DNA of 63,510 bases, filler included, from Asterionella formosa (lineage: Eukaryota), in the NCBI GenBank assembly GCA_002256025.1. It is 29 parts of 29 records of this genome, joined end to end, with 100 filler letters (N's around TTAATTAATTAA, not from the genome) between each part and the next. Parts side by side here need not be neighbours in the genome. Positions count along the whole stretch, not along the records: positions 11,001 to 13,097 come from NKIB01000436.1; 28 more parts are not named here. One strand, written 5' to 3'. Below, one piece after another: positions 2,202-55,719 of this stretch (position 1 is the stretch's first letter; each line of letters opens with the position of its first letter). The translations under genes and the position numbers were made by a program. Below the pieces are notes generated by a model. That model had not been told where the DNA came from. It ran no database searches and saw only the letters and a list, made by a program, of their open reading frames with translations.

Positions 2202-3120
2202 TCAGCGAGGCATCCCTTCGCGCAACGCTAAAGTCCCTCGGTATTGAACCTACGGGCAAGATTCAGTCGTGTGAAGGCTGCGCACTAGCTAAGGCAAAGG
2301 CCAAAGCGGTACCTAAAGTCACGACCCTAAAGACAACTACTCCTACTAAACCTTCCAACGCAATGCCTCCTGACGAACAAGGGGCTGATACGACACTACC
2401 AACGAAACCGGACGATCCAAGTACTCCCAAGGGAGTGAGCTTTGCAGATTCCGTCGCAGTTGGTATGATTACGAACGAGCATCGTACGAATTATGCTACG
2501 AAATCTACAAAGCTAGATCGAGAAATGAATAGGCTATCAACAGGCCTTGTGACCTCGCCTACACCTACTCGTGCAGGTACACATCAGCAATCATCCGCAG
2601 CACGCACGCTTATTTTGGATGACGACACGAATGAAAACCTCCAAGAGCACGAACCTAACGAGGAAGCACATTCAACAAGCCTAGCTTCCGACCCACTGGA
2701 ACCCAAGAGCTACAAGCAGGCACTACTAAGTAACGAAAAAGACGAATGGACCAAGGCAATCAAAGCTGAAATTGAAAACTTCTACTCCCGCAAAGTGTGG
2801 AAGCTACATCCTCGTAAGAATCTAAAGGGACGAAAGCCACTTGGAGCAAAATGGGTATTTAAAAAGAAGAATGAGCACGACAACACTACGCGCTACAAGG
2901 GCCACATCGTGGTAAAAGGCTACGTGCAGATACCAGGTGTCGACTTCACAGACTCATTTGCACCTGTTGTTACGGATACAGGCCTACGTATTGTGTTTGC
3001 GCTCACCCTACACGAGAAATGAATAGGCTATCAACAGGCCTTGTGACCTCGCCTACACCTACTCGTGCAGGTACACGTCAGCAATCATCCGCCGACACGA
3101 ATGAAAACCTCGAAGAGCAC
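2202..3120 (+). mobile_element. Rearranged Copia pol fragment (pre-integrase Zn region, linker, start of RT)
   Basis: CEGCALAKAK, EPKSYKQAL, KWVFKKK, VVKGYVQIPGVDFTDSFAPV; integrase core is missing; RT breaks at ~3020 into a copy of 2519-2650. Confidence 0.9.
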
Positions 3121-3527
3121 GTTGAAATAGTCCGTACTCCTTCCCGCGGGTTGGGTCTCTCTTCACGTAGACTCTTACGTGATCGTAGTACTACCTAGTA
3201 CCACTTACTTTCTCTCTTGTCTCTGCTTCTACTAGCCTTCCTGCTAGATAGACTAATTGACCTTACTGTCAATTAACACACTGTTTCCTCGGTTGATAAT
3301 CTAAATCTCAAATTAAATTATAAGCTAAACTAAATGTTTCCTTTCCATGCATCTTTGCTTCTGCAAAGTCATTCTAAGACTCTCTTCGAGTTTCCACTTA
3401 ACATTTCCTCAGAAATCTTCAATCTCTGATCTCGTTAGACAGCTGATTGACGTGGCAATGCAATATTCGACTCGTTCGATTACAATCGAGTCCACAATCC
3501 TTGTGACTCGGGCTAATATTCTTGACA
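3121..3527 (-). repeat. 3' LTR of minus-strand Copia
   Basis: On minus: PPT GGGGAGGA, then TGTCAAGAATAT...GGAAGGAGTACGGACTATTTCAAC; similar to LTRs at 16952 and 19093. Confidence 0.85.
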
Positions 3528-4301
3528 TCCTCCCCATTGCCACGCTCAAGAGGCTGTAACATCGTTCCACTCTGAACTGGTTCGGACAATCTCGTATGAA
3601 CCTGTTCCTTCACGTTCTTGGTCATAATGTCCGCAAAATTATCTTCCGACCTTATAAAAATGACTTCCAATTCTTCATCCTCAATCATGTCCTTTACATG
3701 ATGATACTTAATATCAATATGTTTTGTCCTGGTTCCGATTTGCTGATTCTTCGCGATAAAAATAGCTCCTGTATTGTCTTCTCGTAGGATACTTGGTAAC
3801 ATGACCTTACCACCAGTAACCTCATTCAGTAGCATTGCTATAAACTTGATCTCATGTCCAAACTGGGACATCGCCACATACTCGGCTTCCGTGCTGGACA
3901 GCGTAACCGTTTGTTGTCCCTTCGACTGCCAACTGATAAGTGCCCCGCCAATAGTAACAAGATAGCCAGTCGTGCTCTTCCTGTTAACCTTATTAGCAGC
4001 CCAGTCACTGTCCACGTAGGCAATGACTCTTAACTCTTTTGGCTTACGCAACTTGAGAACTCTATCCTCCATATTGGATAGGTAACCAATGACTCTTGCC
4101 ACTGCATGCCATTGTTCTTCACCTGGGCAACTTAAATGAGCCGATAGTTCCCGAACCGCATTCGCACAGTCCGGCGAATCCTTCTTTGTAGACCATAGTA
4201 ACTTGCCCACAATTTTTCGATATTCTCCTTCCATAATGACTTCACCGTCATTCTTGTTCAATGTCTTTCCTGGTACACCCGGCGTTGCGTACGACTTAAT
4301 T
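3419..4301 (-). mobile_element. Copia RT C-terminus and RNase H
   Basis: YRKIVGKLLW, AYVDSDWA, RKSTTGY, SWQSKGQQTVTLSSTEAEY, EDNTGAI, RTKHIDIKYH, ADIMTK. Confidence 0.95.
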
Positions 4302-11123: not shown

Positions 11124-11252
11124 TGTTAAAGTATTACCTTTTTGTATAGATCTATATCGTTAGACAAAGAAGACTATAGTTAGAGACGTTCGTTTCTCTT
11201 TCCGTTTCTATATTCTTATTGTGAGTTTACTAATCTAGTTTAGGTTGTTTTG
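11124..11252 (-). repeat. 3' part of an LTR of the 49002-49422 family
   Basis: Near-identical reverse complement of ~49295-49422, including the terminal ACTTTAACA. Confidence 0.9.
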
Positions 11253-12457
11253 GTTTTACATTGGTGCTCCCCAACAAGCGAAACGAGCTGTTGAATGAGC
11301 ATCAACTGAGAAAAAAAGGAAATGTGGCTGCGTTTAGTTAACAATTTGTTGTTGTCCTGCCTGCCTCCCAACGATTGTCATCCAAGTACCACATTGATGG
11401 CTTCATTACCTTAAACATTCTCCATCCTTCGAAGGCGCAATGTGTCGAAGTCACAATGTTTTTCCTTATGTATTGCGTAAACTTTCTTTTCTTGTCATGT
11501 GCTTTACTACGACGTATCTTTTCATGAAGCAGCAGGCATTGTTTGTTAACATGACAGAACGATTTCAAAAAATATATGCCATGAATATAGTAATAAAATT
11601 TGTAAATATATATATATATAGTGTTATACATTCATAAAATTCAAAGGCGCTCTCGATATGGATGGAACATCTGATATGGTTGAGATGATCATACTTGCAT
11701 ATACATAATTCGAAAATACTCAATTCACTATATGTCCATTGTTTTCCACGACTACGTGTACCGGTATTATTTCTGAAATTTGTTTGCATCGATATTTTCT
11801 ACGTCCGTTGAAACTAATTATTTAGACCATTCAATTGGTGTAAGTCATAACCGCCAGGGTTTTGGTAGCAAATTGTTTAAGCCCCTTTTTTGGTTGGGGG
11901 CTCTTCATGTGTACCAGTACATCATATGACAATAACAATATATCATATATAAATACAGAGTACCAGTAGCAGGTAGTCAGTGATATACTGGGGGCAGTCG
12001 GAGTAGTAAACTAGCAACAGAACACCATATATTCAGGACTGTTGCTACTGCAGTGGGACAGTAAATCATCACAGTTTTAGGATCGTATGATCGTAAAACT
12101 AAAAACCAATAGTCGGAGTAATAAGCAAGCAACAGAACACCATATGTCTATGACTGCTGCTACTGCAGCGGGACAGTAAATCATCATAGTTTTAGGATTG
12201 CATGATTGTAAAACTAAAAACCAATAGTCAGAGTAATAAGCAAGCAACAGAACACCATATGTCTATGACTGCTGCTACTACTGCAGCAGGACAGTAAATC
12301 ATCATAGTTTTAGGATTGTATGATCGTAAAACTAAAAACCAATAGTCGGAGTAATAAGCAAGCAACAGAACACAATATGTCTATGACTGCTGCTACTGCA
12401 GTGGGACAGTAAATGAATTTAAGATCATCGAACTTTAAGGAAGACAACAACAACAGT
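11243..12457 (+). repeat. Interspersed repeat family A with internal ~115-bp tandem array (11997-12413, ~3.6 units)
   Basis: Collinear with 27148-28370; array unit also at 36935-37234 on minus. Confidence 0.9.
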
Positions 12458-12581
12458 TATCAAGTAGTACAATGTCTTCAAGAAACCATAAAGAGGTTCA
12501 TGGAAAAAACGACATGAGACAAATACTGCCGGTATGGAACAAAGAAGCAAGTTCCAAAATGAGTTTACAATAGCAAAATTA

Positions 12582-12675
12582 CCAGCAAGTTGAGGTCATT
12601 TTGTTTGAACACATTTTAATCTGGGATAAAGTGTGCTAAATCTTTAGTTTCAGCAAAATTACCGCAACTTGCAGC
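12582..12675. mobile_element. 94-bp Tc1/mariner-type MITE, TA-flanked
   Basis: TA|CCAGCAAGTTGAGGTCATTTTG...CAAAATTACCGCAACTTGCAGC|TA. Confidence 0.75.
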
Positions 12676-12984
12676 TACCTGGTACCAGGTACCAGGTACC
12701 ACAACTTGCAGCTAACAGGGTTCAGTACCTTTCACTGGTACCTGGTACCGGCGACCACGCACGTACGATCCTACCAGGGCGTACCGGAAGGGCAGTCTAG
12801 TGGTTTTCTGTGGTGCGCGAACAAAACCATAGCTCGTCCTTCGGCAGTCATACCAACATCTGCCTAATCACGTGCTGTCTGTGGGTCAATCTACTTCCAT
12901 CATTCACCAGCACATCTCCTCGTAGTTTTGCTGCTTAAGAATTCGAAACAACACACATCTTTGCAAAAAGTCAGCAGATTCACC

Positions 12985-14221: not shown

Positions 14222-14247
14222 GCAAAATGATGACCGCAACTTGCTGG
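14222..14247. repeat. Right TIR of the CCWG-ended Tc1/mariner family; another copy at 19031-19053
   Basis: GCAAAATGATGACCGCAACTTGCTGG|TA and GCAAAATCACCGCAACTTGCTGG. Confidence 0.65.
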
Positions 14248-15394
14248 TACCAGGTAGCCGACCTGAGCTATTGCTCCAGCAATGCTCTATCACAACTCCG
14301 GACATTCGGTTGACTTAGAGAAGTACATATGTTCGTACACCTGTAGTACAATTGGTTCGAATTAGTCGTTTCGCAATCGTGTGTCACGTCGCTCACATAA
14401 AAAATATTTGCCAGTATATCATCATCAGACATCTACCGGACACTTACGCTGATTTTCGTAGAAATGTTCGGACAGTAGGCCGGTTTTTCAGCCGAAGTCT
14501 GAACTTCCGTTCATTCCCATTTTATAATTTAACACGGTATATCTAGTACTACTATGTTGAACTTGGAGTGAAGTTTGATCATTTGAGGGAAATATCGGAC
14601 GAACGGCCGTTTTTTTCTGGTAGCTGTTTTCTCGTGGAATTTTACATATGTAGTAGTTGTCTTGATGGAATCTGTGTTTATGCACTTCGATGCAAATTAC
14701 GTAAGTATCATGTGTGAATGGGCAATTGTCAACTATCGTACTGGTATCTTAGGAACCAGCGTCACCAAGCAAAAAGGCAAGGACTTGACTGTGGTACATA
14801 CGTGGTCTCTCACGATAGGACCCCTGTTGTACCTGGTACCTGGTACCGTACCATACCATACCATACCATACCATGTACCTACCGGTACTAGGATACAGAA
14901 CTTCGATCCAAATTATGGCTTGGTGCCCCCCCCAAAGTACATCAGGTACACACCGGCCCATTGTACCAGTAGCTGGTTCTACATTTGTAAAATTTAGCAC
15001 AACCCAATATTTGTTTTGAATACATAAAAGTAGAGTCATCCTAGTTGATGTCATTCATTTCCTCTTCATTAAATATATGAATGAACATACCACTTGTAAA
15101 TAATAAACCATCATGAATCTCTTGACAAATACATGCCACATGCACTGAGGAGCCACAGCCTCACACTTGATTGCTACACTCACCATGATGATACCTCTGT
15201 TTGTCATTGTTTGATCTTCACCATCAACTCCTTGCTATAACTATGATCGACCAGCAATGCCATCCTCATTGAGTCTCAGATGTTCTTGGTGACANNNNNN
15301 NNNNNNNNNNNNNNNNNNNNNNNNNNNNNNNNNNNNNNTTAATTAATTAANNNNNNNNNNNNNNNNNNNNNNNNNNNNNNNNNNNNNNNNNNNN

Positions 15395-16372
15395 GATCTG
15401 GCGAGAAACTGCAGAAAGGAACTTCGGTTTTTTAACTATGCTGAAAATAGTGGATTTTACCGGGCTAACTCGTTTATTTGGCCTAGTAAAAAAACCGAAG
15501 TTCCTTTCTGCAGTTTCTCGCCGAAAGTTAACTTCTGGGGCTATATGAAGATTACCTATGTACTTAACTCTTCTTCAAACCCTGCCAACGTTGAGCTATC
15601 GTCGTCCAAAAATTCGACAATATCGGCCTTTTCAACGGTCACCCAAACGTCGGAATCAGAATCACTAATCGCCGAAACGTCATCATCGGAATGGTAGTCT
15701 TGTGCTAAAATTTGTAGTCGTAAAATCTCGTGTACAAAAAGTTCCAATGTAATTGCCCGCTGTAATAATCATATACTGATTGGTTATCCTTACATCCGTT
15801 CGATTGGCACGGTTTGCGAGGTCGTGCAATCCCACGCCGGCCACACTGGATACACATGAAGCATTTTCTTGGGTGTTGGCCGATCCTACCCGTATACCGG
15901 TATCCGTACGGAGTGGGAATATCGAGTACCGGGTAGGTTTACCCGTATACCGGAATCCGTACGGAGTAGGAATACCGAGTACCGGGTAGACCTACCGGTT
16001 CCAGGTAACTGATCATCATTCGTCATAGTAAATGGTAGTGCACGCTAACCAGTACCTTAGTACCGATAGTTTGCACATTCAAATATATATTGCAGCCGCC
16101 GGGTCGTGCATGTGAAACATAATTATGATACGAGTAGGTATACTTTCGGTAGAGTAGCAATATAAAACTTTCAGCGATGAAGAATCTATCTTTACATATT
16201 TTATGCATTTGAAATGGAATCTATATACGTGCGCAAATTTCCACTCATTTGAATTTTTCAAACGGAATCATTGATATTCAAATTAGCACATAAAAGTTCT
16301 TAGTTCCAGGGAATTTCGGCAACCCTAAGCAATTTTTTAATTTTTGCCTAGGGGTTCAAATGCAGGAACCTT
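15395..16372 (+). repeat. Interspersed repeat family B with long internal inverted repeat (15400-15522) and hairpin terminus
   Basis: Homologous to 28587-29520 and 62987-63510 (minus); terminus alone at 45355-45411. Confidence 0.85.
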
Positions 16373-18090: not shown

Positions 18091-19092
18091 TATGGGACCG
18101 CAACCGTAGATCTTCAATAAAGCTAGGACGGCCTATGAATCCGGTTGATTGGCAATAAGGCAAGAGTCTTGGTAATTGTCAGTCAGTCATACTAGTTTGG
18201 GCATGGTGGCATTTCCATTTATTGGATCATCAACCAGTGTTTGGATCAAGGGGAAGAATGTAAAAGGACTGATTTCCCTTGTTTGGATTCCCCCAGTCAA
18301 TACCAAAAACACTGAAGTACGACGAGCAATGCTCCATAGAAGGAGCCTAAGAAACCGACCACTGCACTAGATTTTTCTCGCCAATGTTCAAGTGTCGTCC
18401 TCTTTGCTCTCAATGGAAGCCTTGCAGATCAACGAAGCTGTCTTGGTTGCAGGTATTCCTTGCTCTGAGATTGGTGAAGGTCCCAAGGATGAATTACAAG
18501 ACATTGTGGCACGAGTCTTGTCCTTGCTTCTTGCTGCTTCAACAGACGCTGGAATTTGATAGAGACAACTGTTGGGAAAGGAATTGAAGCCGTAAGCCGA
18601 AGTTTCGAATTGCAATAGTGGTACCATAGCTGGTAAATTACTTTCCTTCTCTATTAGTGATGCAGGCAGCTATACCGGTATGTGCATAGGATATAAGGTT
18701 CACCGGTATACCGTTAGGTATGTTTGTCTACTGGTATATAGTTTTAACAGCCAGAATATGAAGTAAGGACTTCTACCAGTAGTTTAAGCAAAATATTGCT
18801 TAAAGTAGTAGAGCCCATTTGCTTTACCGAAAATAGTCCTTCAGTAGTACTCTAACCCGAAATGATGATTCGTCAAATCTGTTTTTTCTGAATTGTCTGA
18901 AAATATCGAATTTTGCATAGTCTTTATTTATTTCGGCCGGCGGTGCCAGCCATTATAAGTTTCGAACTTTGATTTCTCAATGGTTGCCGAGTTGGGACGC
19001 ATCTGTCAGGTTGGGGAATGACACGAAAAAGCAAAATCACCGCAACTTGCTGGTCTCGAGAATACACCCTGGCACCTGGTACTGGTACTAGG

Positions 19093-19485: not shown

Positions 19486-19785
19486 ACCTGGTACCAGGTA
19501 CCAGGTACACGACAATACACTTACATACATACACCATATTTCGTCTCTGCATCTACATATGATCTATCAAAATGATTTTCGGCCCTCATTATAACAAGCA
19601 AGCAATGCGCTTAGCAATGACATCATAAATTCATTCTCTTTCGATTGTTAAGGATCAGGAGTTGAATGGCTGTTTCTTTCAGGAGNNNNNNNNNNNNNNN
19701 NNNNNNNNNNNNNNNNNNNNNNNNNNNNNTTAATTAATTAANNNNNNNNNNNNNNNNNNNNNNNNNNNNNNNNNNNNNNNNNNNN

Positions 19786-21881
19786 GATATTGAATATTGT
19801 CTGTCAAGATGGGATGATTAAGGAAACATGTAAGCAGAGGTTCATCATCTAATTCAATTGAAAAAGTAGAAGTGGAAGTTGATGTTGGAGATTTCGGTCC
19901 AATATCAATATCATCCTCCACCAAAGACTCAAGCCTCGGGAGGCGAGAGATGGAATCTGCAATAGCATTGTCAGTCCCTTTCACATAATGAAAAGTAGGA
20001 TGGTATTCTTCAATGTAAAGTCGCCATCGTAGAACACGTTGTGTATGTAATGTATTATAAATAAGATTTCGATGATCAGTGTGAACATGTAGAACTGCGC
20101 CCAATAACATAGAGCGAAATTCTTTGAAAGTTTCTACCACAGAAAGTAATTCTTTTTCAATAGTAGTATAATTCTTTTGAGCAGCAGATAATTTGCGAGA
20201 ATAATAAGCAACTGGGAGATCATTTTGCATAATGACCGACCCTAATTGATAATCAGAGGCATCAGTAAAGATATGAAAAGGGAGATTATGGTCAGGATAA
20301 CGCATGAGTGTATCTGCAACTAACAATGCTTTCATTTCTTCAAAAGCTTGTTGATGGATAGGTAACCAGACAAAGGGACTAGTTCCAATTAAATCCGTAA
20401 GTGGTCCAAGAACATGCGATCGTCTAGGAAACATGTCTCGATAGTAAGTAACAGCACCGAGAAATGATCGAACTTGTTTAAGATTGGTAGGTGAAGACAT
20501 ATTAATCAATGCTCGGACTTTTTTAGACCAAGGTTTCAGTCCATTAGGAGTTAACCAATAGCCTAACCAATCTGTCTCTTGGACGGCCCATTCACACTTA
20601 GATGGATTAATTGTAAAACCATTTATCTGTAAACGATGTAAAATAGTGTCCAATAAATGAAGGTGATCTGAAAAATTCATTGAAAAACAACCCACATCAT
20701 CAATATAAATTTCCACATCATCTAAATCACTAAGGATCTGTTCCATAGTTTCTTGTGCAATGTCAGATGATTGTTTCACCCCCATAGGCAGGCGTAAATA
20801 TTTATATAAACCAAATGGAGTTGAAATAACACACAAGTTTTGACTCTCCACATCCAATGCAAAAGTATAGTATTGCATGGAAACATCCAATTTGGTGAAA
20901 AATACATATCCAGCACGTTTAGTGAGAATAGTTTGTATTCGAGGCAAAGGATATATATTGCGATTGATGACTTTATTAAGTTCACGAAAATCTGATACCC
21001 ATCGGACACTTCCATCCTTTTTTGGAATAATAAAAGTGGGAGATGCCCATTTAGAAGCACCACATTTTTGTAGGACTCCAATATCACATAATCGTTGTAA
21101 TTCAGTTTTGAAAACTTCTAAATGAATATGAGCGACCGGATATGCTCGTTGATGACGAGGGACAGCATTTGATAATAATTCCAAATGTACCTGTTTGTGA
21201 GGATAGACTTTTAATTTGCCATCAAATAATGTTTGATATTTAACCAATATAGATCGTAAACATGATCGTTGTATTGTTGTCAAATGTATTTGTTTATCCA
21301 CCACTGTATCAATATTTATATAATTATATTCAGCAGCTTTAATTTCCAGCGCATATGAAGATTCCACAATCATAGGTGCATCGAAATATAATAATACATC
21401 TTGTAAACGTTCTCTATCATCAAAGAATGTGAGCGGATGCATAGGAACGATCATATCCATACAGGACATGGTGTTATTTACGAAATCAATGGTTAAACCA
21501 ACTTGACGGAGCATAACCCGTTCATGTATTAAGGATAATGATCCTCCACTATCGAATAATACTCGTAGTATTTTATGTATCGGTATATTATCCACCAATT
21601 TTGGCGCTAAAAGGGACATCGGAATCAAATCAATTGATGTTAATATATCCTTAGAAGTAAAACAAGAAACCGGAATTGGTCCCTGATATGTATGTGGAAC
21701 ATCATGTCCATCAATACAGTTATATATATCCCGCGTTACATTAACAGCGGTATTCATAGTGTATTCAACCTGTAAATAAACAATATTATTCAGGTGATGA
21801 CTAACGTGAGATATACTCAACGAGTCATTATAAATAGCATCGCTATTATCGCACATACCTCTGTAATGGCGATCAGCAATC
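19786..21881 (-). mobile_element. Ty3/Gypsy pol (protease with deletion, RT, RNase H)
   Basis: LFDSGGS, WASPTFIIPKKDGSVRWVSDFRELNK, RLPMG, YIDD, FTDASDYQLG, YTTIEKELLS, HTDHRNL, ADSISRL. Confidence 0.95.
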
Positions 21882-24176: not shown

Positions 24177-26271
24177 TAGCTGAATGGGTACGATATGTCT
24201 GCCAGAGTAAGACAAGTTTCTGACCAAAATCTCATGTCCACACCAAGTGCACACTTCGTCGACATGAGTATACAATGTTGGCAGTTTACGTGTGAGAGTG
24301 CTCGTCCTCACCATATCAGAAATCAATTTTGAGTCCTTATCGTTGCAGTCGTCTTCCGAATCGTTGTATGCGTCGTTTGAATAGATAAATACTTCTTTTG
24401 AATCTAGCGATTCTTCCGAGTCGTCGTATGTTTCTTAGGCGCAGCATGAAAAGCGTAATGTCACAGAGGAATAAAAAGGGGAAGCAAAATAGGAATTTGA
24501 CTGGGAACGGGGACCTGTTGTTATGAAAACTGTTTGACACTTTTATTTTTATGTACCTGTTGTAAGTTCAAAAAAGTATGTTCTTCCAACGAATCCCTCC
24601 TGCTGATTTTGAATTTGGTGTTGGGTCTGGTTTATTTTGCTCAGACATGTTGTTCTCCGTTCATAAAGGACCCAATTGTGAACATTGCTTTTATGAATAT
24701 ATACCGGTAATGATAAACATACATTGATTTTTATTATATCAGAGTATCATTTTTGATGGAGTCGGCTGGGCGATGCTGGTACGAGGACGAACTGATATGT
24801 ACTGGTACCAGTTTCTTTACTTCACGATTCGGCTCGATCCTCACAAGAATCAAATTCCGTGCTGGTACATATGGGTTCCCTGATGAGGAAGGCGGACCGA
24901 TCATACCAGCTTACTACCGGTAAGTATGTCCCGGTAGGTACCTGTGAAAGTTGCGGTCATTTTGCTTAATTAAATAGACAATTTCATTTAGGATAAAGGA
25001 AGATAAATCTTTTGTTCAGGAAAATTGCCGCAACATGCAGGTACCAGGTAACCCTGGTGTAATGCATACCCGGTATTCCGCTGGGCGAACACAATTGCGG
25101 GTACCTGGTACTGTTTATAATGCGGTAGGATTAATGGTACCTGGTACCTGGTACCAGACACCGGTACATAGCTTTGTACCCTTGTTCTAAAGCTACACAG
25201 GTATACCTGACTGTCTGGTACCCAGAAAGAACTCAAAATTTTAAGGGTTCATTCCCGTAACAGTAATTGCAGTCGTGACGTGACGGAATATCAGCTGAAA
25301 TGAGTACTTTGTACCAGTAGTACCAGGTAGTATGTATTGTTATGTCGACATAGGCATTCAGTCAATCCATGTCCGTACGAACACAGTGTACTTTTGATAC
25401 AAACGGAATTGTAAGACAGCTGCTGGAGTGTACCTGGTACCGAAATACGGGTTTGTAACTACCGCAAGTCCTATAGGTACCTGGTACCTGGTACCAGCAG
25501 GACCGGTACCGGTATCTGGTACCGTAGATGAAATTCATTTATTGGGCGGAACGAAATTCTATCGTCCTCGGACTCCTTCGACTTCAGTACATACATGCTC
25601 GATTGTTTGCTGTTCGCTCTTCGAAGGGCTTCTACCTTACATACCCACCGTAGGAAATCTACGGGGAGACTAATTTTCTACACTTCGATCTTCGTCGCCG
25701 CTGCATCATTGCTTGCTTGTCGTTTCTCAACGTTCAGAAGTTGGACAGGCTGCACGATACTCGTCATTTCGTTCATTTTAAATTTTAAGCATCCATTCAA
25801 TACCATTACCATGAACCCTGAATAGTGAGTCCAACCATGGCGTGCATGAACACTGGTGTTGTCCCGCTGAGGGAGAAAGAGAATCGGTGAAAGACAGGAA
25901 CCCATGGAAGCTGTGAGAACGAGAATTCGCAGGCAGTCTCGTTGCGAATTATTTAGCAGTCATTCGCAAGCAATCAACTTGCTCCAGGGTGGTTCCAGGC
26001 CATGGCGAAGTGGCCTGGACAAGTGGCCTGCGATTCTATTCGTTAGGAATTAGCCCTGGCAAAGCAAAGATAAGGACGCTCTTTCCCCCGATAGCCCTGC
26101 AATGACAAGGACGTGTGTATGTCTTGGAACGAGGGGTCGTAAGATGCAATCATGAGGCATGCAAAGATTTCTGGTTTGCACGTTTCTAACATTGTTTTTC
26201 TCCTTTTCTTGTTCCTTCTCCCCAAAACAGCGATTACCTCTTCAAGCTTCTGCTTATCGGAGACTCTGGTG
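24177..26271. repeat. Whole-contig near-duplicate of 41706-43798 (probable allelic haplotig)
   Basis: Identical first and last bases, collinear throughout with scattered SNPs and indels. Confidence 0.9.
24941..25041. mobile_element. 101-bp CCTG...CAGG MITE, TA-flanked
   Basis: TA|CCTGTGAAAGTTGCGGTCATTTTG...GAAAATTGCCGCAACATGCAGG|TA; same family as 12582. Confidence 0.75.
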
Positions 26272-26471: not shown

Positions 26472-26586
26472 CTTCACATAATTATTTGAAATACTTCATA
26501 TAATTATTTGAAATACTTCACATAATTATTTGAAATACTTCACATAATTATATGAAATACTTCACATAATTATTTGAAATACTTCA
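26472..26586. repeat. 22-bp tandem repeat x5 (CTTCACATAATTATTTGAAATA)
   Basis: Read directly from sequence. Confidence 0.95.
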
Positions 26587-27147: not shown

Positions 27148-28370
27148 GGTTTGGTTTTGTTTTACATTGGTGCTCCCTAACAAGCGAAACGAGCTGTTTA
27201 ATCAACTGAGAAAAAAGGAAATGTGGCTGCGTTTAGTTAACAATTTGTTGTTGTGCTGCCTGTCTCCCAACGATTGTCATCCAAGTAGCTACCACATTGA
27301 TGGCTTCATTACCTTAAACATTCTCCATCCTTCGAAGGCGCAATGTGTCGAAGTCACAATGTTTTTCGTTATGTATTGCAAAAAATTTCTTTTCTTGTCA
27401 TGTGCTTTACTACGACGTATCTTTTCATGAAGCAGCAGGCATTGTTTGTTAACATGACAGAACGATTTGAAAAATATATTTGCCATGAATATACTAATAA
27501 AATTTGTAAATATATATATATATATTAAGTGTTATACATTTTATAAAATTCAAAGGCGCTCTCGATATAGAACATCTGATATGGTTGAGATGGCCATACT
27601 CGCATATACATAATTCGAAAATACTCAATGCACTATATGTCCATTGTTTTCCACGACTACGTGTACCGGTATTTTTTCTGAAATTTGTTTGCATCGATAT
27701 TTTCTACGTCCGTTGAAACTAATTATTTAGACCGTTCAAATGCCGCAAGGGTTTTGGTAGCAAATTGTTTAAGCCCCTTTTTTGGGCGGGAGCTCTTCAT
27801 GTGTACCGGTACATCATATGACAATAACAATGTATCATTTATACATACAGGGTACCAGCAGCAGGTAGTAAGTGATATACTGGCTGGGGGTAGCCGGAGT
27901 AGTGCCGGTAAACTAGCAACAGAACACCATATGTTCAGGACTGTTGCTACTGCAGTGGGACAGTAAATCATCATAGTTTTAGGATCGTATGATCGTAAAA
28001 TTATGATCCAAAAGAACACCATATGTTCATGACTGTTGCTGCTGCAGTGGGACAGTAAATCATCATAGTTTTAGGATCGTATGATCATAAAACTAAAAAC
28101 AAATAGAACACCATATGTTCATGACTGTTGCAATTACAGTGGGACAGTAAATCATCATAGTTTTAGGATTGTATGATCGTGAAACTGAAAAGCGGTACCG
28201 GTAGTCGGAGTAATAAGCAAGCAATAGAACACCATAGTAAGTCATCATAGTTTTAGGATTGTATAAATAGAACACCATATACATATGTCTATGACTGCTG
28301 CTACTACAGCGGGACAGTACCGGTAAATGAATTTAAGATCATCGAACTTTAAGGAAGACAACGACAACAG
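27148..28370 (+). repeat. Repeat family A, copy 2
   Basis: Collinear with 11243-12457; array units are shorter variants. Confidence 0.9.
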
Positions 28371-28586
28371 CTGGTCGTGTGGCCGTTGCTGGTCCACTTT
28401 TAATGGCCGAAGAAGGAAGCGACGAAAAGATCACCATTACGAGCGGAACGAGAGAAATCGCTTACGNNNNNNNNNNNNNNNNNNNNNNNNNNNNNNNNNN
28501 NNNNNNNNNNTTAATTAATTAANNNNNNNNNNNNNNNNNNNNNNNNNNNNNNNNNNNNNNNNNNNNATATATCGTCAGTATATAGG

Positions 28587-29520
28587 ATCTGGTCAGAAAC
28601 TGCAGAAAGGAACTTCGGTTTTTTAGCTATGCTAAAAAGACTCGAAATTTCGGGGGAAATCTGTTTATTTGGCATAGTAAAAAAACCGAAGTTCCTTTCT
28701 GCAGTTTCTCGCCAGAAGTTATAAACTGGTGCTATTTAAAAGTTACCTATGTATCTAAATCGCCGTCAGACCCAGCAAACGTTTAGCTATCGTCGTCCAA
28801 AAACTCGACAAAATCGGCCTTTTCTACGGTCGCCAAAATATCGGAATCAGAATTATTAAGTGCCGAAACGTCATCATTGGAAAGGCAGTCGTGTGCCGGA
28901 ATTTTTAGTCCTAAAATCTCCTGTCCGAAAAATTCCATTGTAAGTACCCGCTTCCACATACATAATATGATTGGTGAGCATGAAGTACATTCCTCTGTTT
29001 GATTGGCCTGGTTTGCGAGGTCGTGCAAACCCACGCTGGCCACATTGGATTAACATGTAACATTTTCTTGGGTGTACTGACAGTCCGGTTCTATATTCAC
29101 GACGGGTACCAGTAGATGATCATCATTGGACATACGCGTACCGCTCCTTGGGTGCACTTTCAAATATTTGCCAACCCGCCTGGTTGTATACATGACCCAT
29201 ATTCGTCGATAGGAGTATACATTGTAGTACTGGTGTATGCACATGAAGCGATGTAGAACCTAAATATATATATATTTATATATGTGTATATTAAACGATT
29301 TGAATATGTCGAACGGATTCAATGCATAGCATATACAATCGTTAATCGGAGTATAGAGTGTCCATGCATACCTGTTGATCGTATTTTTAGCATATATATA
29401 CATTCAGCGACTGAGAGTGTCAATATATATATTTAGCGATTTTGACAAGGAATCTATGTACGTATTCGCAAATTTCCACTGATTCAAATATTTCAAATGG
29501 AATCACGTCATTCAAAAATA
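28587..29520 (+). repeat. Repeat family B, copy 2
   Basis: Same inverted repeat and body as 15395; right half near-identical to 63510-63075. Confidence 0.85.
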
Positions 29521-30749: not shown

Positions 30750-32844
30750 TCGATTTCTGGGAATTGTGCTTCCAGTGTAGAGATCAGCTGGGCAAAGGGA
30801 ATGATTATTTGGGGTATGATTATAAAGGTGCACCGCGTAAGTAACTGCCATAGGCCAAAGTGTGCTGGCAATCCCTCCTTTCCAATGACTGGAAGCATGG
30901 AGAATCATTGAGCGTGCCATGTCAGATACTGTTCTAATAGCCCGTTCTGCTACACCATTTTGATAGTGTGCATTTGTTCCACAGTATTGAAGACGCTGAG
31001 TATGTTCTCGAATATGTTTAACAAGAGAGTTTGCTTTGAATGCTCCACTGTCAGTGAGATAGGATTGTATAATGACACCATTGTCCATTGCCTTTTGCTC
31101 ATAGTTTTGTTTTGCTCTGATGGTTTCAACAGCAGAGAATTCCAATTGGTGCTCCACTTGAATGTATCCGGTGCCATGATCCACAAATATGCAGCCCCCT
31201 TTGTAGGTGTCTGCTGATGGTTTTCCATAGGAGTCAAAGGTGCGTCCTAGAAGGCGAGATTCAAAGTGACCAACGGAAACTCTAACACCAGGTCCAAGAT
31301 GTTCAGCTGTCAGTGCACCAGTTCGTTCAGGATTTGCAGTGATTGTGGAAGAATTTGTTGAACAACGGTGTCCTTTAGAGTATTGACAGATTTCGCATTT
31401 TCGGTCCAATGCATTGCATTTGGATGCTGAGGCAAATCGATTGGCGGTGAATGGGAATGCACGCAGTATTCGTTGAACTGCTGGTAAGTTTAAGTGTCCG
31501 AAGCGAAAATGCCAATTTAAAAGAAGTTTTTGACCAGCACTATTGTTTTGATTTCCCTCGTTGGTTAGGGCAAAGTTCATCTGCGGTAACATTCCCGATA
31601 CAATCCTGGCTTGTCCAATTGGGAGGTGATATCTGGGGTCATACTCAACAATCAGACAAGGACACCCATCGAATTGAAGCCTGAATGATTCTTCATCACC
31701 CTTGTTGTACCATCCACTTACTCCTTTTTCTTTATTGAACAGACGTTGTGGACTAATCAGTCTCATTTTAGATTGAGGGACATAGTAGCATTAGCTGCGA
31801 ATCTGCACTTCTGTGCCATCTTTGTTGCTGAATGTCCATGTAACTGGTCCAACTCCCTCTAATTTTAATCCGTTGGCCATACACCCAAGTCGAAGTTCAT
31901 AGTCTGGAATGGTAAGTGGCCCATCAAAGTCTTGTATGTCATGTGTAACTCCCAATGATGCTCCTGTATCGAAGATTACTGCTGACGTTGTGTTTGCCAT
32001 TGTGAACAAAGAGTATGGGTCATGTGCTAAGATATCGATATCGGTAAGAACATCCATCACTTGGGTCGTTGAGTGGTTGCATGTTGGTTCCTCCTTAGTA
32101 TTTGTTAATACAGTTGCATTCGAGTCATGTATGCAGTCAACACAGTGGCGGGTAGCACAGAGGTCATGAAAGTGAAATGGATCATATGGTGTCTGAGGTG
32201 TTGACGCATTCACAGATGTGGATTCAAGAACACATGGGTTGAGATCATTGTGAATACTTTCCCATTTTATTTGGTTGAAGTTTCAAAGAGCTGTCCAATC
32301 CAGGTCAATCATCGTTTCAAGTTTTGTGATTCTGTCATACGTAGCAGCCGATTGAGTGTTGAAAAGATCCTTGACAGTGTGGAAGGTTGGAAGGTTCTTG
32401 TGACCATAAAATATCCCAGGCAAAAGTAGAATGGAATGAGTCAATATCATCCATGATGCTGGTGCAAAAATGAAAGGTATAGGAACATTCTTCTGTTTGC
32501 ATCGTTGCAGTGTGCGAGCAGGAGTATCAGATGGGGAAGAAAGGATAAAGTATGCTACTGTATCCCAGAATATCGCACTAAACCAAAATAGGATTTTCAT
32601 GATAAGGTATGTTGTGCTCTGGATCGAGTCACTTGGCAGTTTCAGGTCCTCCCCAGCAATTTCATTGTTTTTGCACTCCAGATTTGCATGTGTCTCACAA
32701 GCATTGTTATTTTTATTGGTCTTCTCCCTCTCAATGACAGAAGTGTGCACGTTTGTTTCGCTCTTTCTGAAGGTACTTGGAGTAGGAGTGTATCCGCAAA
32801 CCTACACATCGACATCAATTGGATAGATAACAGGAGCACACCAT
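30750..32844 (-). mobile_element. Defective CoDi-like Copia: spacer, protease, pre-integrase, integrase
   Basis: VIFDTGASLGVT, LISPQRL, LLLNWHFRFGH, CEICQYSK, VSVGHFES (expected Asp is Gly), LTDSGAF, QNGVAERAIR; in-frame stops. Confidence 0.92.
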
Positions 32845-32944
32845 NNNNNNNNNNNNNNNNNNNNNNNNNNNNNNNNNNNNNNNNNNNNTTAATTAATTAA
32901 NNNNNNNNNNNNNNNNNNNNNNNNNNNNNNNNNNNNNNNNNNNN

Positions 32945-33790
32945 ACCCCTTATCGCTCTGGCCTGGTCTATGACCGCATTGTGCCTGATGGTGCTGAACT
33001 TTCCCCCAAAGCTCGCGCGGCCATTATTACACAATACCAGTCACTCATTGGGGCTCTCAATTGGCTGGCTGTCAGCACACGTCCTGATGTCTCTGTGGCC
33101 CTCACTCTCCTGGCTCAGCACAACTCCTATGCCACCCCTGCTCACCTTTTAGGTGCCAAGTATGTGTTACGATACCTGGCTGGCTCTGCCGATCATGGCA
33201 TTGCCTTTACCTCGCAATTTGCTTCCTCATACCTCTCCACCACCTTTGGCTGGCCCAAGGACACTCCCACTCTCACCACTTACACCGATGCCAACTGGGG
33301 CCCCCAAGATGCTTCCAAACCCAACCCCACCGACATCATCTCTCTTGCCGAGTGTTGCTCCCTTCTTGGTTCCATCAGTACACGTACAGGTGGCCCCATT
33401 GCCTGGCATGTCATTCGTGAACCTCGTGTGAGCCGCAGTACCTGCGAATCTGAAATCAAATCTGCAGATGAGGGCACCAAGGTTACCCAATTCATCCGCC
33501 ATATCCTTAGTGACCTCCACATGCCTGATGTAACTCTCCCCACCCCTCTTTGGAATGACAACCGAGGTGCTGTGGACTGGTCCCACAACTGTGCTAACAA
33601 AAAGATGCGGCATATTAATATCCGCAACATGGCTGTGCGCGACGCTCACCGTTTTTCCGAAATCTTTGTCACCCACCTCCCAGGGGATACCAATGTTGCT
33701 GATCTGTTCACCAAAGAACATAAAGATGATGCCCATTTTCTCCGCCTCCGCAATATTATTGTCCCGTCTCATGGGAATTTTCTCACTTGA
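32945..33790 (+). mobile_element. Copia RT end and RNase H
   Basis: YQSLIGALNWLAVSTRPDV, YTDANWGPQDAS, SRSTCESEI, NDNRGAVDW, MRHINIR, NVADLFTKE. Confidence 0.95.
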
Positions 33791-33796
33791 GGGGGG

Positions 33797-33967
33797 TGTT
33801 GGTACCATATACCGGTTACTCCGTATATCCTACCAAGATTCCTGTAAGTGCTTAATTCCCGTGAGTACTGGTCCCTCTACAGATAGTTAAATACTACTTT
33901 AGAATCTCAGTTCCTTGTTAATGTAGCTGCCGCTGGCATCCGTTGCAAGCGTTTCTCCCTCTCAACA
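33797..33967 (+). repeat. Short 3' LTR (~171 bp)
   Basis: PPT GAGGGGGG, then TGTTGG...TCAACA. Confidence 0.75.
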
Positions 33968-33972
33968 CACAC

Positions 33973-35039
33973 AACTCTATCCTCCATATTGGATAGGTAA
34001 CCAATGACTCTTGCCACTGCATGCCATTGTTCTTCACCTGGGCAACTTAAATGAGCCGATAGTTCCCGAACCGCATTCGCACAGTCCGGCGAATCCTTCT
34101 TTGTAGACCATAGTAACTTGCCCACAATTTTTCGATATTCTCCTTCCATAATGACTTCACCGTCATTCTTGTTCAATGTCTTTCCTGGTACACCCGGCGT
34201 TGCGTACGACTTAATTATCATACCGGTCAACTTCTCGTATTCGCGTAGAAGTTGCATACGAAATTTCTGCATTTGCACCTCCCAGTATTCACCATACTTG
34301 TCCTCTTTCCAAGCATATTCCACTCCTAGGTGTTTCTGTAGAATACCCTGCTCGGTAATATTGAAATCTTCCTTGATAACATTTTTCATATACTCCACTG
34401 CACTTGGAGTCCCACATACAATACCGTCATCCACGTAATTAACAAGTAGACCATCAATTTGTCCATCCTTGTTCCGGTGCATAAATAACATAGGGTCGAT
34501 CTTGCTCTTCGTCATACCTGGTTTATTGGTGACACATTTCGCAAACGTCCTGGACCAGCATCGTGGAGCTTGTACTATCCCGTACATAGCCTTCACAAGC
34601 TTGCAAACATGTGTATCGGAATCGACTCCGATCAAACCTTGAGGGGGCTCAATATAAATGTCCTCATCGACGTCAGCATTTAGAAATGCTGCTTCCACAT
34701 CAATAGCCTCCGCTCGCCAACCGTTGTACATCGTCACTGCGAGTACCGTTTTGATTGTCGCATCGCTTGCAACTGGAGCAAATGTCTCAGTAAAATCGAC
34801 ACCTGGGATTTGCTCATATCCCTTCACGACCAATCTTGCCTTGTAAATGGTCTTCCCGGTTAACACATCTTCTTTAATTCGAAACACCCATCTCGTTTTT
34901 AGTGTTCGCTTCTTAACAGTATCACGTTTGATAACTTTCCACACTCCTCTCGACTGGAAGTTTTCATATTCTTTGTTGATCGCCTTGATCCACTCTTTCT
35001 TGTCTGGTCTTGCCATTGCTTCATCGTAGCTTGTTGGTA
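33973..35039 (-). mobile_element. Copia RT, same family as 3419-4301, interrupted at 33973
   Basis: YKARLVVKGYEQIPGVDF, DVEAAFLN, KAMYG, YVDDG; 33973-34215 matches 4058-4301. Confidence 0.95.
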
Positions 35040-37234: not shown

Positions 37235-37957
37235 NNNNNNNNNNNNNNNNNNNNNNNNNNNNNNNNNNNNNNNNNNNNTTAATTAATTAANNNNNNNNNN
37301 NNNNNNNNNNNNNNNNNNNNNNNNNNNNNNNNNNGCCGATAACAACATGAAGTCGCGTTTTTCTTGCGAGGTGAAGAACTCTCTCATTTTTCACAAGACG
37401 GAAATAATTGTCATATTAATACATCTTAGAAAAATGTGCGCTATCCTGTAGAACTAAAGAAGTTTACTTAGGTCCATTATAAGGGAAATCTCTTCATTGT
37501 CCTGGGCCCCCCTTAAGTAAAATCAGTCAAATTCAGTCACGGCAGTGTACATTGGGGGGTCCAGGACAATGAAGTATACGGTAGTTTCTTTGATAGAAGT
37601 AGGCGAGGAGACTTCCTTGTTGTAGATTCAGGAGTTAAGGGAGCTCCTTTTCTTTTCAAATACTTCGTCAATTCTTCGGATGAATTTTTGCTATACTCCA
37701 TCATGTCATGAAGATCAATAGTCTTTAACCAATTCTTAATGAGTGTAATACTGATCACCTTTCTTTTGTTTCTGTATCACTAAAAATATTGATCCTCAAC
37801 TCGCTAGGCTCCATATATTTCATTATAGAACTATATCTACCCTGTATCTTGCAAAAAATGGCGTTCAAAATATGCAATCACGATCATATAACAAGAAGCA
37901 AGGTCGGACCAAAAAAATTCTCGATGATCATTTTTTGCATGGCTATATACATATTTT

Positions 37958-41705: not shown

Positions 41706-43798
41706 TAGCTGAATGGGTACGATATGTCTGCCAGAGTAAGACAAGTTTCTGACCAAAATCTCATGTCCACACCAAGTGCACACTTCGTCGACATGAGTAT
41801 ACAATGTTGGCAGTTTACGTGTGAGAGTGCTCTTCCTCACCATATCAGAAATCAATTGAGTCCTCATCGTCGCAGTCGTCTTCCGAATCGTTGTATGCGT
41901 CGTTTGAATAGATAAAAACTTCTTTTGAATCTAGCGATTCTTCCGAGTCGTCGTATGTTTCTTAGGCGCAGCATGAAAAGCGTAATGTTAGAGAAATATA
42001 AAGGGGAAGCAAAATAGGAATTTGACTGGGGACGGGGACCTGTTGTTATGAAAACTGTTTGACACTTTTATTTTTATGTACCTGTAGTAAGTTCAAAAAA
42101 GCATGTTCTTCCAACGAATCCCTCCTGCTGATTTTGAATTTGGTGTTGGGTCTGGTTTATTTTGCTCAGACATGTTCTCCGTTCTTAAAGGACCCAATTG
42201 TGAACATTGCTTTTATGAATATAATAATCATAAATATACATTGAATTTTATTTTATCAGAGTATCATTTTTGATAGAGTCGGCTGGGCGATGCTGGTACG
42301 AGGACGAACTGATATGTATTGGAACCATTTACCTACTTTACTTTACGATTCGGCTCGATCCTCACAAGAATCAAATTCCTTGCTGATACATATGGGTTCC
42401 CTGAGGAAGGCGGACCGATCATACCAGCTTACTACCGGTAAGTATGTACCGGTACCTGTGAAAGTTGCGGTCATTTTGCTTAATTAAATAGACAATTTCA
42501 TTTAGGATAAAGTAAGATAAATCTTTTGTTGAGGAAAATTACCGCAACATGCAGGTACCAGGAAACCCTGGAATAATGCATACCCGGTATTCCGATGGGC
42601 GAAAACAATTGCGGGTACCTACCTGGTGCTGTATATAATACGGTAGGATTACTGGTGGTACCTGGTACCAGACACCGGTACATAGCTTTGTACCCTTGTT
42701 CTAAAGCTACACAGGTATACCTGTTAGTCTGGTACCCAGAAAGAACTCAAAATTTAAAGGGTTCATTCCCGTAACAGTAATTGCAGTCGTGACGTGACGG
42801 AATATCAGCTGAAATGAGTACTTTGTACCAGTACCAGGTAGTATGTATTGTTATGTCCACACAGGCATTCAGTCAATCCATGTCCGTACGAACACACTGT
42901 ACATTTGATACAAACGCAATTGTAAGACAGCTGCCGGAGTGTACCTGGTACCGAAATACGGGTTTGTACCTACCGCTAGTCCTATATGCACCGGTGTATA
43001 TATATTCATAGCACCTGGTACCAGTACCAGCAGGACCGCTATCTGGTACCGTAGATGAAATTCATTTATTGGGCGGAACGAAATTCTATCGTCCCCGGAC
43101 TCCTTCGACTTCAGTACATACATGCTTGATTGTTTGCTGTTCGCTCTTCGAAGGGCTTCTACCTTACATACCCACTGTAGGAAATCTACGGGGAGACTAA
43201 TTTTCTACACTTCGATCTTCGTCGCCGCTGCATCATTGCTTGCTTGTCGTTACTCAACGTTCAGAAGTTGGACAGGCTGCACGATACTCGTCATTTCGTT
43301 CATTTTAAATTTTAAGCATCCATTCAATACCATTACCATGAACCCTGAATAGTGAGTCCAACCATGGCGTACATGAACACTGGTGTTGTCCCGTTGAGGG
43401 AGAAAGAGAATCGGTGAAAGAGAGGAACCCATGGAAGCTGTGAGAACGAGAATTCGCAGGCAGTCTCTTTGCGAATTATTTAGCAGTCATTCGCAAGCAA
43501 TCAAGTTGCTCCAGGGTAGTTCCAGGCCATGGCGAAGTGGCCTGGACAAGTGGCCTGCGATTCTATTCGTTAGGAATTAGCCCTGGCAGAGCAAAGATAA
43601 GGACGCTTTTTCCCCCGATAGTCCTGCAATGACAAGGACGTGTGTATGTCTTGGAACGAGGGGTCGTAAGGTGCAATCATGAGGCATGCAAAGATTTCTG
43701 GTTTGCACGTTTCTAACATTGTTTTTCTCCTTTTCTTGTTCCTTCTCCCCAAAACAGCGATTACCTCTTCAAGCTTCTGCTTATCGGAGACTCTGGTG
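41706..43798. repeat. Near-duplicate of 24177-26271, containing the MITE copy at 42455-42555
   Basis: Same end points and collinear sequence. Confidence 0.9.
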
Positions 43799-52568: not shown

Positions 52569-53228
52569 NNNNNNNNNNNNNNNNNNNNNNNNNNNNNNNN
52601 NNNNNNNNNNNNTTAATTAATTAANNNNNNNNNNNNNNNNNNNNNNNNNNNNNNNNNNNNNNNNNNNNAATTTTTTCGCCCAGAGGGAGTGCGTTCGACC
52701 CTGTAAAACCATGGAGACAATGATATTTTTAGAGCTCTACATACAATAAAAGTATGAACATATTTTTTGGTCTAATTTACTACTTACGGTATATAATATC
52801 CCGACATGTGATGGTGTGTGCGTATAAGTACCGGAATAGTACCTGGTACCAGGGGTACCAGGTACTAGGTGCCGGTAGTATGATGTCTGAGTGTGTCTGT
52901 TAGGCTGTTGATGTCGACAGGTGTCCGAAGCTAGATGTAGTCTGAGGAATGTATAACGGAAATACCGGTAGACAGGATTGCTTTATATTCATGACCCTAT
53001 ATGTAGCAGAATAGTATGCAGACGAGCGTCGTGAGAAAGATCTTGACCGCCACATATTTCAACAGCATGATAGCCTTGCATTCAAAACGATTCGACCGCA
53101 AACTACCTCACACCGTTTCATGAATACAATAGCAAACATTATCGAATGCCAGCAATAAAGGTTACGATATCAAAACTATAGCTAAAGTTACATGCAGTCC
53201 ATACTCCATACGATAACCGTGAAAATGA

Positions 53229-54305: not shown

Positions 54306-55719
54306 TGTTCCGTTGAACAGATATTATATGACAATGAATTTGGAAAGTAACAGCAACATGTCATTGATTATGAATGAAAGACTCATAAATTCCTCTGCCT
54401 GATGATCTGCATTGAACAGTGCATCAAACTACTGAAGGAAAGACACGACCGACGGTTGGTGGCCGGGCGCCACTCGTTTGGTCAACCTGCTCGCGCCTCC
54501 CAAGCCTCGAACACAAGATTACGAGTAGGCAGACTCCTCCCGAGTACCGGTAGGGTCTTAACTAGGCAATTCCCGCTCCAGCTATCGTCTTGCCATTCGG
54601 GTACTTCTAAGTAATTTTTAGGCTCTAAGTAATCTCTTAAGTAATTGATTTTTAGGGGCAATATGGGGCATATCAATTTTTTCGACAGAATGAAAATTGC
54701 CGATTTTAGGATGACAGCCAGAATAACGGTAAAATACATAAAAAGGGTACAACAAGCGTNNNNNNNNNNNNNNNNNNNNNNNNNNNNNNNNNNNNNNNNN
54801 NNNTTAATTAATTAANNNNNNNNNNNNNNNNNNNNNNNNNNNNNNNNNNNNNNNNNNNNTGAAGAAGCGCAGCGGGGTGACAAGAGTAGATCAATGCAGC
54901 AGACGAAAGGCAACGCCACAAAGAAGAAGAAAAAGAGAAGCAATGTCATAGCACGTGGATTCAAATGAATGAGCTATATTTTCAGATTTTTGAGTACACA
55001 GAACAATAGGATAGGCTTTGATGACTCGTAGCCCTGGTTCAGTGCAGCAAGCAGTTACAGCATCGTTCACACTCTTTTCTCGGGTCGAAGCCGTACTATA
55101 TAATGTGCAGGCCATGTCCCGTTTTCGTGACAAGGAGCTGTCCTTATAATTCTTTATTATTGGGAATGCCATTATGGGTTGACAGGGAGAAGCTACATGG
55201 ACTTAAAAGTAGGTCAATCAGCATTCGTGTTCCAGTATGCATTTTCGTTGTTGTCCTTGAAAAGAGTGCTGATCAAATAACCCAAGAACTCAATGCAATA
55301 ATGTATCATCTATTGCAAGTTGTAATGAATGTTCAATCTTTTCACATCCATATATTCCTCGTCTTGAGGGAACAGTGAGGATTCTGAAGTAGTAAGGAAA
55401 TCAGTTGCCAAATATACAATGCATCTTGAACATACGAAAATGTTTTGTTTCTTTCATCTATACCTTCATACTATAGGTCCCCCCAATAAAATGTGTGACT
55501 TTTAATTTCAATGATGAGTTTAACTTTGACTGACAAACATTGAAATTGCACATCTGTTCAAATGTATTTAACAGTTGGCCCAACAGGCACAATCTGAAAT
55601 CACACAAAATGGGCCAATACTTTTTTGATGATTTGATATATAACATCGTCATTGCAAACTGGGCGCGCTCTGATAAGAAAAGAATATTGCATATCATGTG
55701 CATTATAACATTAATTCTT

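Follow-up and report, generated by a model that had tools for sequence, protein, structure and literature searches.

Probable excision scars of cut-and-paste transposons in the non-coding DNA of Asterionella formosa and a miniature element that appears to land in them

The short palindromes TACCGGTA and TACC(A/T)GGTA, scattered over the non-coding DNA of Asterionella formosa (assembly GCA_002256025.1), are most likely the scars of departed cut-and-paste transposons. They were studied starting from a stretch of 63,510 nucleotides, here called the window, which is composed of 29 unrelated contigs of ~2.1 kb each, joined by artificial spacers of the form N44-TTAATTAATTAA-N44, so that "throughout the window" means across independent contigs. 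Genome-wide counts refer to the 68.4-Mb assembly (15,436 contigs), and the locus-level work, with loci numbered L, to ~0.9 Mb of it (0.86 Mb after removal of overlaps), mostly repeat-biased. The public sequencing runs that match it best carry the labels of algal or freshwater metagenomes. We propose, at a probability of roughly two in three, a reading in three layers, in which TACCGGTA is the scar of pogo transposons, TACC(A/T)GGTA (TACCWGGTA below) is the scar of a donor with CCAG ends, and a miniature inverted-repeat transposable element (MITE) lands in scars of the second kind.

Both motifs are strongly over-represented. The window contains 30 copies of TACCGGTA and 30 of TACCWGGTA, in comparison to means of 0.43 (maximum 3) and 0.30 (maximum 2), respectively, in 100 dinucleotide shuffles per contig, and the control words TAGGCCTA and ATCCGGAT do not occur in it. 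Assembly-wide, the pattern TACCN{0,1}GGTA marks 57,976 sites, one per 1.18 kb, versus 3,137 for the reversed-pattern control. The distribution between coding and other DNA was determined in 200 kb from three long contigs, picked for length and hence a non-random sample, comprising 71 kb of open reading frames (ORFs) of at least 200 aa and 129 kb of other sequence. TACCGGTA was found there 99 times outside ORFs and 6 times inside (0.77 versus 0.085 per kb), TACCWGGTA 74 times outside and once inside, i.e. both are depleted ~9- to 40-fold in long ORFs (Fisher p ~1e-12). The enrichment and the non-coding bias noticed in the preliminary description of the window are therefore real features of the genome. 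Within the window, retroelement-like ORFs (copia- or gypsy-like by reading) lie at 2202-4301, 19786-21881, 30750-35039 and 46092-52568 on contigs that are nearly motif-free.

The two motifs differ in their arrangement. TACCGGTA is mostly solitary (351 of 392) and has a weak flank preference, with GG ahead of the TA in 10 % of cases. TACCWGGTA stands mostly in chains (189 of 328), and its flanks read G|TA...TA|C in ~80 % and GG|TA...TA|CC in ~60 % of cases. Since they are unlike in chaining and in flanks, the two motifs are ascribed to different sources. The five chains described earlier, at 12676-12700, ~14830, ~19486-19508, ~25475 and ~52839, were all found again and trimmed to the following limits:

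12676-12700, no strand: chain of three TA-bounded 7-bp units (CCTGG, CCAGG, CCAGG)
14830-14845, no strand: chain of two CCTGG units
19486-19508, no strand: chain CCTGG, CCAGG, CCAGG within an LTR-like repeat copy
25478-25514, no strand: mixed chain (CCTGG, CCTGG, ... CCGG)
52840-52864, no strand: mixed chain (CCTGG, CCAGGGG, CCAGG)

The motifs are TA-duplicating insertions, visible as 6- and 7-bp gains at TA, as had been claimed from paired repeat copies. Three of these pairs differ by exactly CCGGTA (12407 versus 28320-28325, 29128-29137 versus 63463-63468, and 24702 versus ~42220). Two further gains held up less well: the one at 27903 is a decayed copy, and at 19398 the two copies differ in a compound manner, not as cleanly as first stated. 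The sites and the repeat concerned are:

11239-12574, plus strand: truncated piece of the high-copy repeat F1 (40 of 707 first-look candidates scored, 91-100 % identity)
28318-28325, no strand: TA-CCGG-TA gained at a TA of F1 (pair 12407)
63461-63468, no strand: TA-CCGG-TA gained in comparison to 29128-29137
24702-24709, no strand: TA-CCGG-TA missing in the sister contig (~42220)
27903-27910, no strand: decayed TA-CCGG-TA (TG for TA), 6-bp gain

The sister contigs (window 24177-26271 and 41706-43798) are 94 % identical end to end, being alleles or a recent duplicate, and also differ by several 4-bp TACC/GGTA and 3-bp indels. Plain TA is the majority state at 28318 (10 of 11 aligned homologues) and at 63461 (3 of 3), and 6 of 13 polarised 6-bp insertions are exactly CCGGTA at TA. 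Gains of 7 bp were seen beside an unlike unit (CCAGG by CCGG in L202/L117, CCTGG by CCAGG in L076/L204) and at a plain TA (CCTGG, L205 versus F1); some gains match their neighbour (L203/L118, W12/W20). Adjoining chain units are unlike in 163 of 213 pairs. New units thus do not copy the adjacent unit in the manner of a slippage microsatellite, and these unlike neighbours, together with the 7-bp gains beside unlike units or at plain TA, rule out slippage as the explanation of the chains; units are added beside older units, as the preliminary description held.

For TACCGGTA the donors are likely, at a high level of confidence, to be pogo transposons with a DDE_1 transposase, families P1, P3 and P4, whose excision scar TA-CCGG-TA would be. 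The genome contains 93 DDE_1 matches, the top eight with one score and one identical printed protein. P1, P3 and P4 end in TA|CCGT...ACGG|TA, the CCGT ends being flanked by TA in 27 of 28 (P1), 15 of 16 (P3) and 4 of 5 (P4) cases, and a fourth family ends in TA|CAGT. Membership of pogo is indicated by a DDE_1 transposase with the DDxD triad (PF03184, E=1e-21 for P1 and 8e-9 for P3; the P1 spacing, DD35D, was read from motif positions), by nearest atlas clusters that are DDE_1, by terminal inverted repeats (TIRs) with CCGT ends around the ORF in L071, L076, L151, L153 and L170 (2.2-2.5 kb), and by a duplicated TA target in the filled site L153 versus the empty L117. As for a CENP-B-type helix-turn-helix in P1 and P3, P1 gave a sub-threshold HTH_Tnp_1 match alone. 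A second, convergent ORF of ~145-150 aa without a Pfam match is present in P1 (L071 781-1215) and P3 (L153 1380-1838). The window itself carries one end of such an element:

37492-37583, minus strand: pogo P3 element end (TA|CCGT...), candidate TACCGGTA donor family

One TA of a repeat family was found in three states: empty in L117, occupied in L153 by a 2232-bp P3 element with DDE_1 and a duplicated TA, and as TA-CCGG-TA at G000:C14159:765-785. The empty/filled/footprint triplets that had been asked for are thereby represented by one series, consisting of paralogous copies and not of alleles. The scar has the composition of a Tc1/mariner footprint, bases from the donor ends between two TAs, CC(G)+(C)GG being derivable from CCGT...ACGG; the earlier view of TACCGGTA as the footprint of a TA-duplicating element hence agrees with the ends of resident pogo elements. 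After a pogo cut, each of the two flanks would keep a 3' tail of CCG, or one of CC, and joining of the CCG tails via the CG overlap, or retention of both CC tails, would give TA-CCGG-TA. A later C-to-T change at the CpG of the scar would yield TA-CTGG-TA/TA-CCAG-TA, and TACTGGTA, which stands for these two forms, is best read as a product of such CpG decay: it occurs 258 times versus 56 expected, the remaining 11 single-change neighbours of the scar do not exceed 2.5-fold, and the CCGG and CTGG forms were both found at one F1 site. The flanks separate the sources further. The GG|TA habit is lacking in CCGG scars (10 %) and in pogo ends (1 of 46 ends adjoins an older unit) and is present in CCWGG units (~60 %) and in the ends of the MITE described below (25 of 77 adjoin an older unit; Fisher p=2e-5).

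TA-CCWGG-TA is likewise a TA-duplicating insertion, and we lean, by a little, towards its being the scar of another element, of Tc1/mariner type, that ends in CCAG...CTGG. The fillers between the TAs were counted as CCAGG/CCTGG 328, CCAGGG/CCCTGG 46, CCCAGG/CCTGGG 2 and CCATGG 7 (14 counting both strands, 5 expected). This spectrum fits two equal CCAG tails joined with varied overlaps and so suggests a donor whose CCAG...CTGG ends are symmetric, in contrast to those of the MITE. Such a donor would favour G|TA|C and GG|TA|CC sites, each CCWGG scar would make a better target, and mixed chains would grow. The self-feeding chain growth postulated earlier is accordingly plausible as far as the 7-bp units go, ~60 % of which stand in GG|TA|CC context; the donor was not found.

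The MITE is represented in the window by the following copies and ends:

12586-12671, no strand: 86-bp non-coding MITE, ends CAAGTTG(A/C)GG...CCGCAACTTG (L121 copy)
12583-12585, plus strand: left CAG direct-repeat copy (inferred target duplication)
12672-12674, plus strand: right CAG direct-repeat copy; the restored target, TAC-CAG-CTA, agrees in 8/9 with TACCAGGTA
12697-12714, plus strand: second copy (17/18) of the MITE right end 12660-12677, beyond the chain, recognised by eye in the sequence
14226-14247, minus strand: lone end of a longer subfamily of the MITE TIR family, then CTG-GTA
19032-19053, minus strand: lone end of another long subfamily, flank CTG-GTC, without TA
24947-25037, no strand: 91-bp MITE copy, left end decayed
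42461-42551, no strand: the same insertion as 24947-25037, in the 94%-identical sister contig

Directly left of the focal copy, the sequence is similar to the interior of a further MITE end. The TIR pattern occurs at 8 places in the window (0 expected), and TA followed by the TIR gives 418 exact matches genome-wide (control 0), so the TA-flanked TIR family recognised in the preliminary description exists in both. The copies it placed at 24941 and 42455 are both there; they count as a single insertion because their host contigs are 94 % identical end to end. As to its lone TIRs, the end at 14247 is followed by CTG-GTA, and the end at 19053 by GTC, with neither a TA nor a chain.

What this MITE duplicates was decided from the W base at its two ends. 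Among 39 complete copies, 34 were informative, and in 29 of these the W at the left end and the W at the right end, read on one strand, are identical (16 A/A, 13 T/T, 5 mixed; p=4e-5). Of the 39 copies, 22 retain an intact direct repeat of 3 bp, and one shows an inverted match of that length. A/A and T/T both occur with either internal orientation, the closest pair (L008/L006, alignment distance 3) consists of an A/A and a T/T copy, no relation of W to subfamily was seen in 23 copies (p 0.32 and 0.66), and members of 0.45-1.4 kb follow the same W pattern. The TA duplication with inverted terminal bases of a Stowaway/Tc1-type MITE was thus not found. Because W is a direct repeat untied to orientation or subfamily, the element is taken to be CAAG...CTTG and to duplicate CWG, or W alone, in the target TAC-CWG-GTA; a 1-bp W duplication with G...C ends is indistinguishable from a CWG duplication. 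A 4-bp GTAC duplication was rejected since many ends lack the G. We consider it very likely that the MITE duplicates CWG in TAC-CWG-GTA in a NuwaI/Harbinger-like manner and lands in TACCWGGTA scars, which it would restore on leaving. On this reading the loci L008 and L046 form a filled/empty pair, the empty state being TACCAGGTA, and CAG-C-CAG in L216 is possibly the result of imprecise excision.

No transposase of this MITE was detected in the ORFs inward of 20 long ends, in 18 metagenome loci, or in relatives of the 1.3-/1.4-kb members (a 3.5-kb version at G000:C6637 being left out), and no MITE TIR pair surrounds a transposase in 50 of the 93 DDE_1 loci or in 50 DDE_Tnp_4 loci (150 scored, 423 candidates). 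A hAT-like ORF remnant beside the L001 end was considered as a partner and set aside as a separate 786-bp insertion without a Pfam match. A 786-bp insertion with a hAT-dimerisation-like remnant lies inside a long member of the MITE TIR family at L031 114-900. A 1.2-kb family (L117 4160-5364, L039, L025, L154) with TTAA-like flanks and GGTTGCGGCC ends has GTTGCGG in common with the MITE TIR.

The preliminary description had made this MITE the donor: with CCWG ends it would duplicate TA, and its excisions would write the CC(W)GG units. It is the sole family with TA-CC(A/T)G by conserved sequence in the ~0.9 Mb examined, 77 of 115 of its ends directly follow TA and 25 of those 77 adjoin an older unit, and L008/L046 can be read as a filled/footprint pair. 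This explanation is nevertheless improbable. W is direct in 29 of 34 copies, and a single copy of 39 has the 3-bp inverted match; W flips at both ends jointly between the closest copies, with no subfamily signal; an asymmetric CCAG/CCTG element would yield CCAGGG and CCCAGG alike, and these were seen 46 versus 2 times; the flank habits of the CCGG scars match pogo and not the MITE. The MITE is therefore probably not the donor of the scars and appears to land in them.

Several observations weigh against the three-layer reading. The empty/filled/scar series represents a single site in paralogous copies, and its scar match, 21 bases long, is one of five pattern matches (reversed control 3). At a second pogo site CCGG stands at a neighbouring TA 3 bp off. 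Exact matches to P1 ends number ~135 (control 44), few in comparison to tens of thousands of scars. No CCWGG filler was present in 218 polarised insertions, the 7-bp gains being based on unpolarised or few-copy pairs, and the CCSGG excess is no greater than that of other TACCAGGTA neighbours. The 20 listed TA-C end clusters from ~0.9 Mb include no symmetric CCAG family, and mariner-type profile searches (PF13358, PF01359) gave no match, although these were insensitive, the controls being also silent and P1 itself scoring on PF13358. The pair L008/L046 fits the footprint view equally well and on one side matches over only ~10 bases until a further insertion intervenes, and a stricter search for excised sites with 55 MITE queries gave no clean new empty site and did not recover L008/L046. 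A general repair habit behind dinucleotide-duplicating insertions may also contribute to the scars.

Such a host repair habit is the main rival for the pogo origin of TACCGGTA. Small insertions most often duplicate 2 bp, which may be any dinucleotide, on either side of C, G or GC. A flank repeat of exactly 2 bp was counted in 72 of the 168 polarised insertions of 3-12 bp (null 18.9), and 7 lacked a flank repeat (null 91.8); in the 2-bp-repeat class one-base fillers are C or G in 39 of 42 cases and two-base fillers GC in 11 of 13. Deletions of 3-12 bp are few (17, 7 of them with a 2-bp repeat). All insertions might on this evidence be repair scars, made without any transposon by fill-in of a 2-nt staggered break and addition of untemplated C or G, the fillers that dominate. 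That the whole set arose in this manner is nonetheless doubtful, slightly more so than an origin from the MITE. The CCGG and CCWGG fillers are restricted to TA, none being among the listed non-TA fillers, and start with C, whereas the general two-base filler starts with G; moreover, the CCGG fillers are identical to the termini of TA-duplicating elements that reside in the genome, one of which was seen occupying such a TA.

Copies of F1 supplied many of the polarised insertions, and this repeat is itself a candidate source of the 2-bp-duplication class. It has CGTCT...AGACG ends, subterminal tandem repeats and loose 2-bp flanks of varied dinucleotides (TA in 8 of 27; L116 3856-8114), and its ORF remnants resemble fungal hypothetical proteins and have no Pfam name. 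We presume, as a guess, that F1 is Plavaka/CMCT-like in origin. Its C...G ends would predict CG as filler; GC was seen instead. An origin of the fillers from hAT-like flank hairpins was set aside because the fillers do not mirror the flanks.

A selected role, with the motifs being protein-binding sites spread by slippage or conversion, is quite unlikely. The motifs are palindromic, non-coding and clustered, 38 of 65 pairs of CCWGG neighbours are alike (same W), and some of the gains are copies of the adjoining unit. However, 38 of 65 is not different from chance (p=0.21), neighbours differ in 163 of 213 pairs, and the motifs undergo CpG decay and arise as whole 6-bp gains within dead repeats and even within a MITE. 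An assembly or sequencing artefact can practically be dismissed: the window does consist of short contigs joined by artificial spacers, but motifs and MITE are also present in long contigs and in independent metagenome contigs (e.g. L225, 1.9 kb long, which carries 5 and 16 motifs).

Other families were rejected as scar donors, namely an active Harbinger family with AGGG ends and mostly TNA flanks, and families with GGGCGC ends, which make ANT duplications. The Harbinger family with AGGG ends (L181-L200) is very young, and its identical transposase matches, situated at the ends of contigs, run to dozens; Harbinger-type elements with GGGCGC ends lie in L209 (duplication AGT), L220 (AAT) and L038. 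The window also contains an ORF with a helicase-associated HA domain (53232-54323) and short palindromic repeats of other families (15400-15522, 26473-26578, 28576-28728, 55786-55974). TTAGGG-type repeats occur within a short inverted-repeat element at L041 2924-3000.

Since DNA transposons as a rule leave few and variable scars, the rate at which they excise is difficult to measure. With the ~55,000 stereotyped sites in excess here, past cut-and-paste events would be countable directly across the genome, and the CpG-decay product could serve as a clock. Transposon scars would be a main source of small insertions in the non-coding DNA, and a CWG-duplicating MITE that lands in scars would tie the evolution of a target site to the mutational debris of another element. 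In its broadest form the idea is tentative and, taken as a whole, rather unlikely: the genome would keep a continuous log of transposon departures, with the majority of its small insertions being scars made of a 2-bp duplication and element-end bases, one scar type creating its own next target and so building up chains, and a Harbinger-like MITE being specialised on it as a safe landing site. On the practical side, the motifs will mislead motif discovery and repeat annotation, and the MITE ends are easily mis-parsed as TA-duplicating.

No report was found of this motif, of stereotyped scars at such density, of genome-wide scar chains or of a scar-targeting MITE in a literature whose subscription papers were covered to a limited extent. 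The nearest systems are the following. Sleeping Beauty, a Tc1/mariner element, leaves "cag" or "ctg" between TAs (PMC5224488), and Mariner/Stowaway elements are cut inside the TIR, so that TIR bases stay on the flanks (PMC4561436). The scars described here resemble both in the duplicated TA with element end bases between the TAs, and differ in the four bases of the main scar (CCGG) and in their tens of thousands (PMC5224488, PMC4561436). Stowaway elements in the beta-amylase intron of Triticeae left several footprints with 1-4 TIR bases inside the TAs and re-inserted beside an older footprint; unlike here, this is one locus across species, in that account without chains of 3-5 units or a genome-wide load (PMC1925063). 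Lemi1/Emigrant of Arabidopsis is also pogo-related and has TIR-derived extra bases at empty sites, with two putative footprints only (PMC1636448); P1 and P3 add a second convergent ORF.

For the MITE, the parallel is the NuwaI group (PHIS, PIF/Harbinger), defined by CWG duplication (PMC4482050). The MITE shares with it the 3-bp CWG target duplication and an extended palindromic target. Zebrafish Harbinger3_DR is a further candidate parallel. NuwaI TIRs usually begin with GGG and are described from animals only, and the autonomous NuwaI form has DDE and Myb/SANT proteins (PMC4482050); the MITE begins with CAAG, and no such partner was found for it in the loci examined. The MITE thus probably works like a NuwaI/Harbinger MITE, being a candidate member of the group. 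The AGT and AAT duplications of L209 and L220 follow the ANT pattern of Pangu (PMC4482050). mPing/Tourist, which duplicates 3 bp and excises so precisely that its target is regenerated, may serve as a model (PMC4561436); the target would differ, being GC-centred for the MITE here and itself probably the scar of another element. Excision is recognised as a source of genome-wide variation with varied outcomes (PMC4423477). To these systems the present analysis adds the pogo empty/filled/scar series, the division of the motifs into two classes by their flanks, the class of scars with CpG decay and the general class of 2-bp duplications. Excision footprints and re-insertion beside them are known; the scale on which they occur here is unusual.
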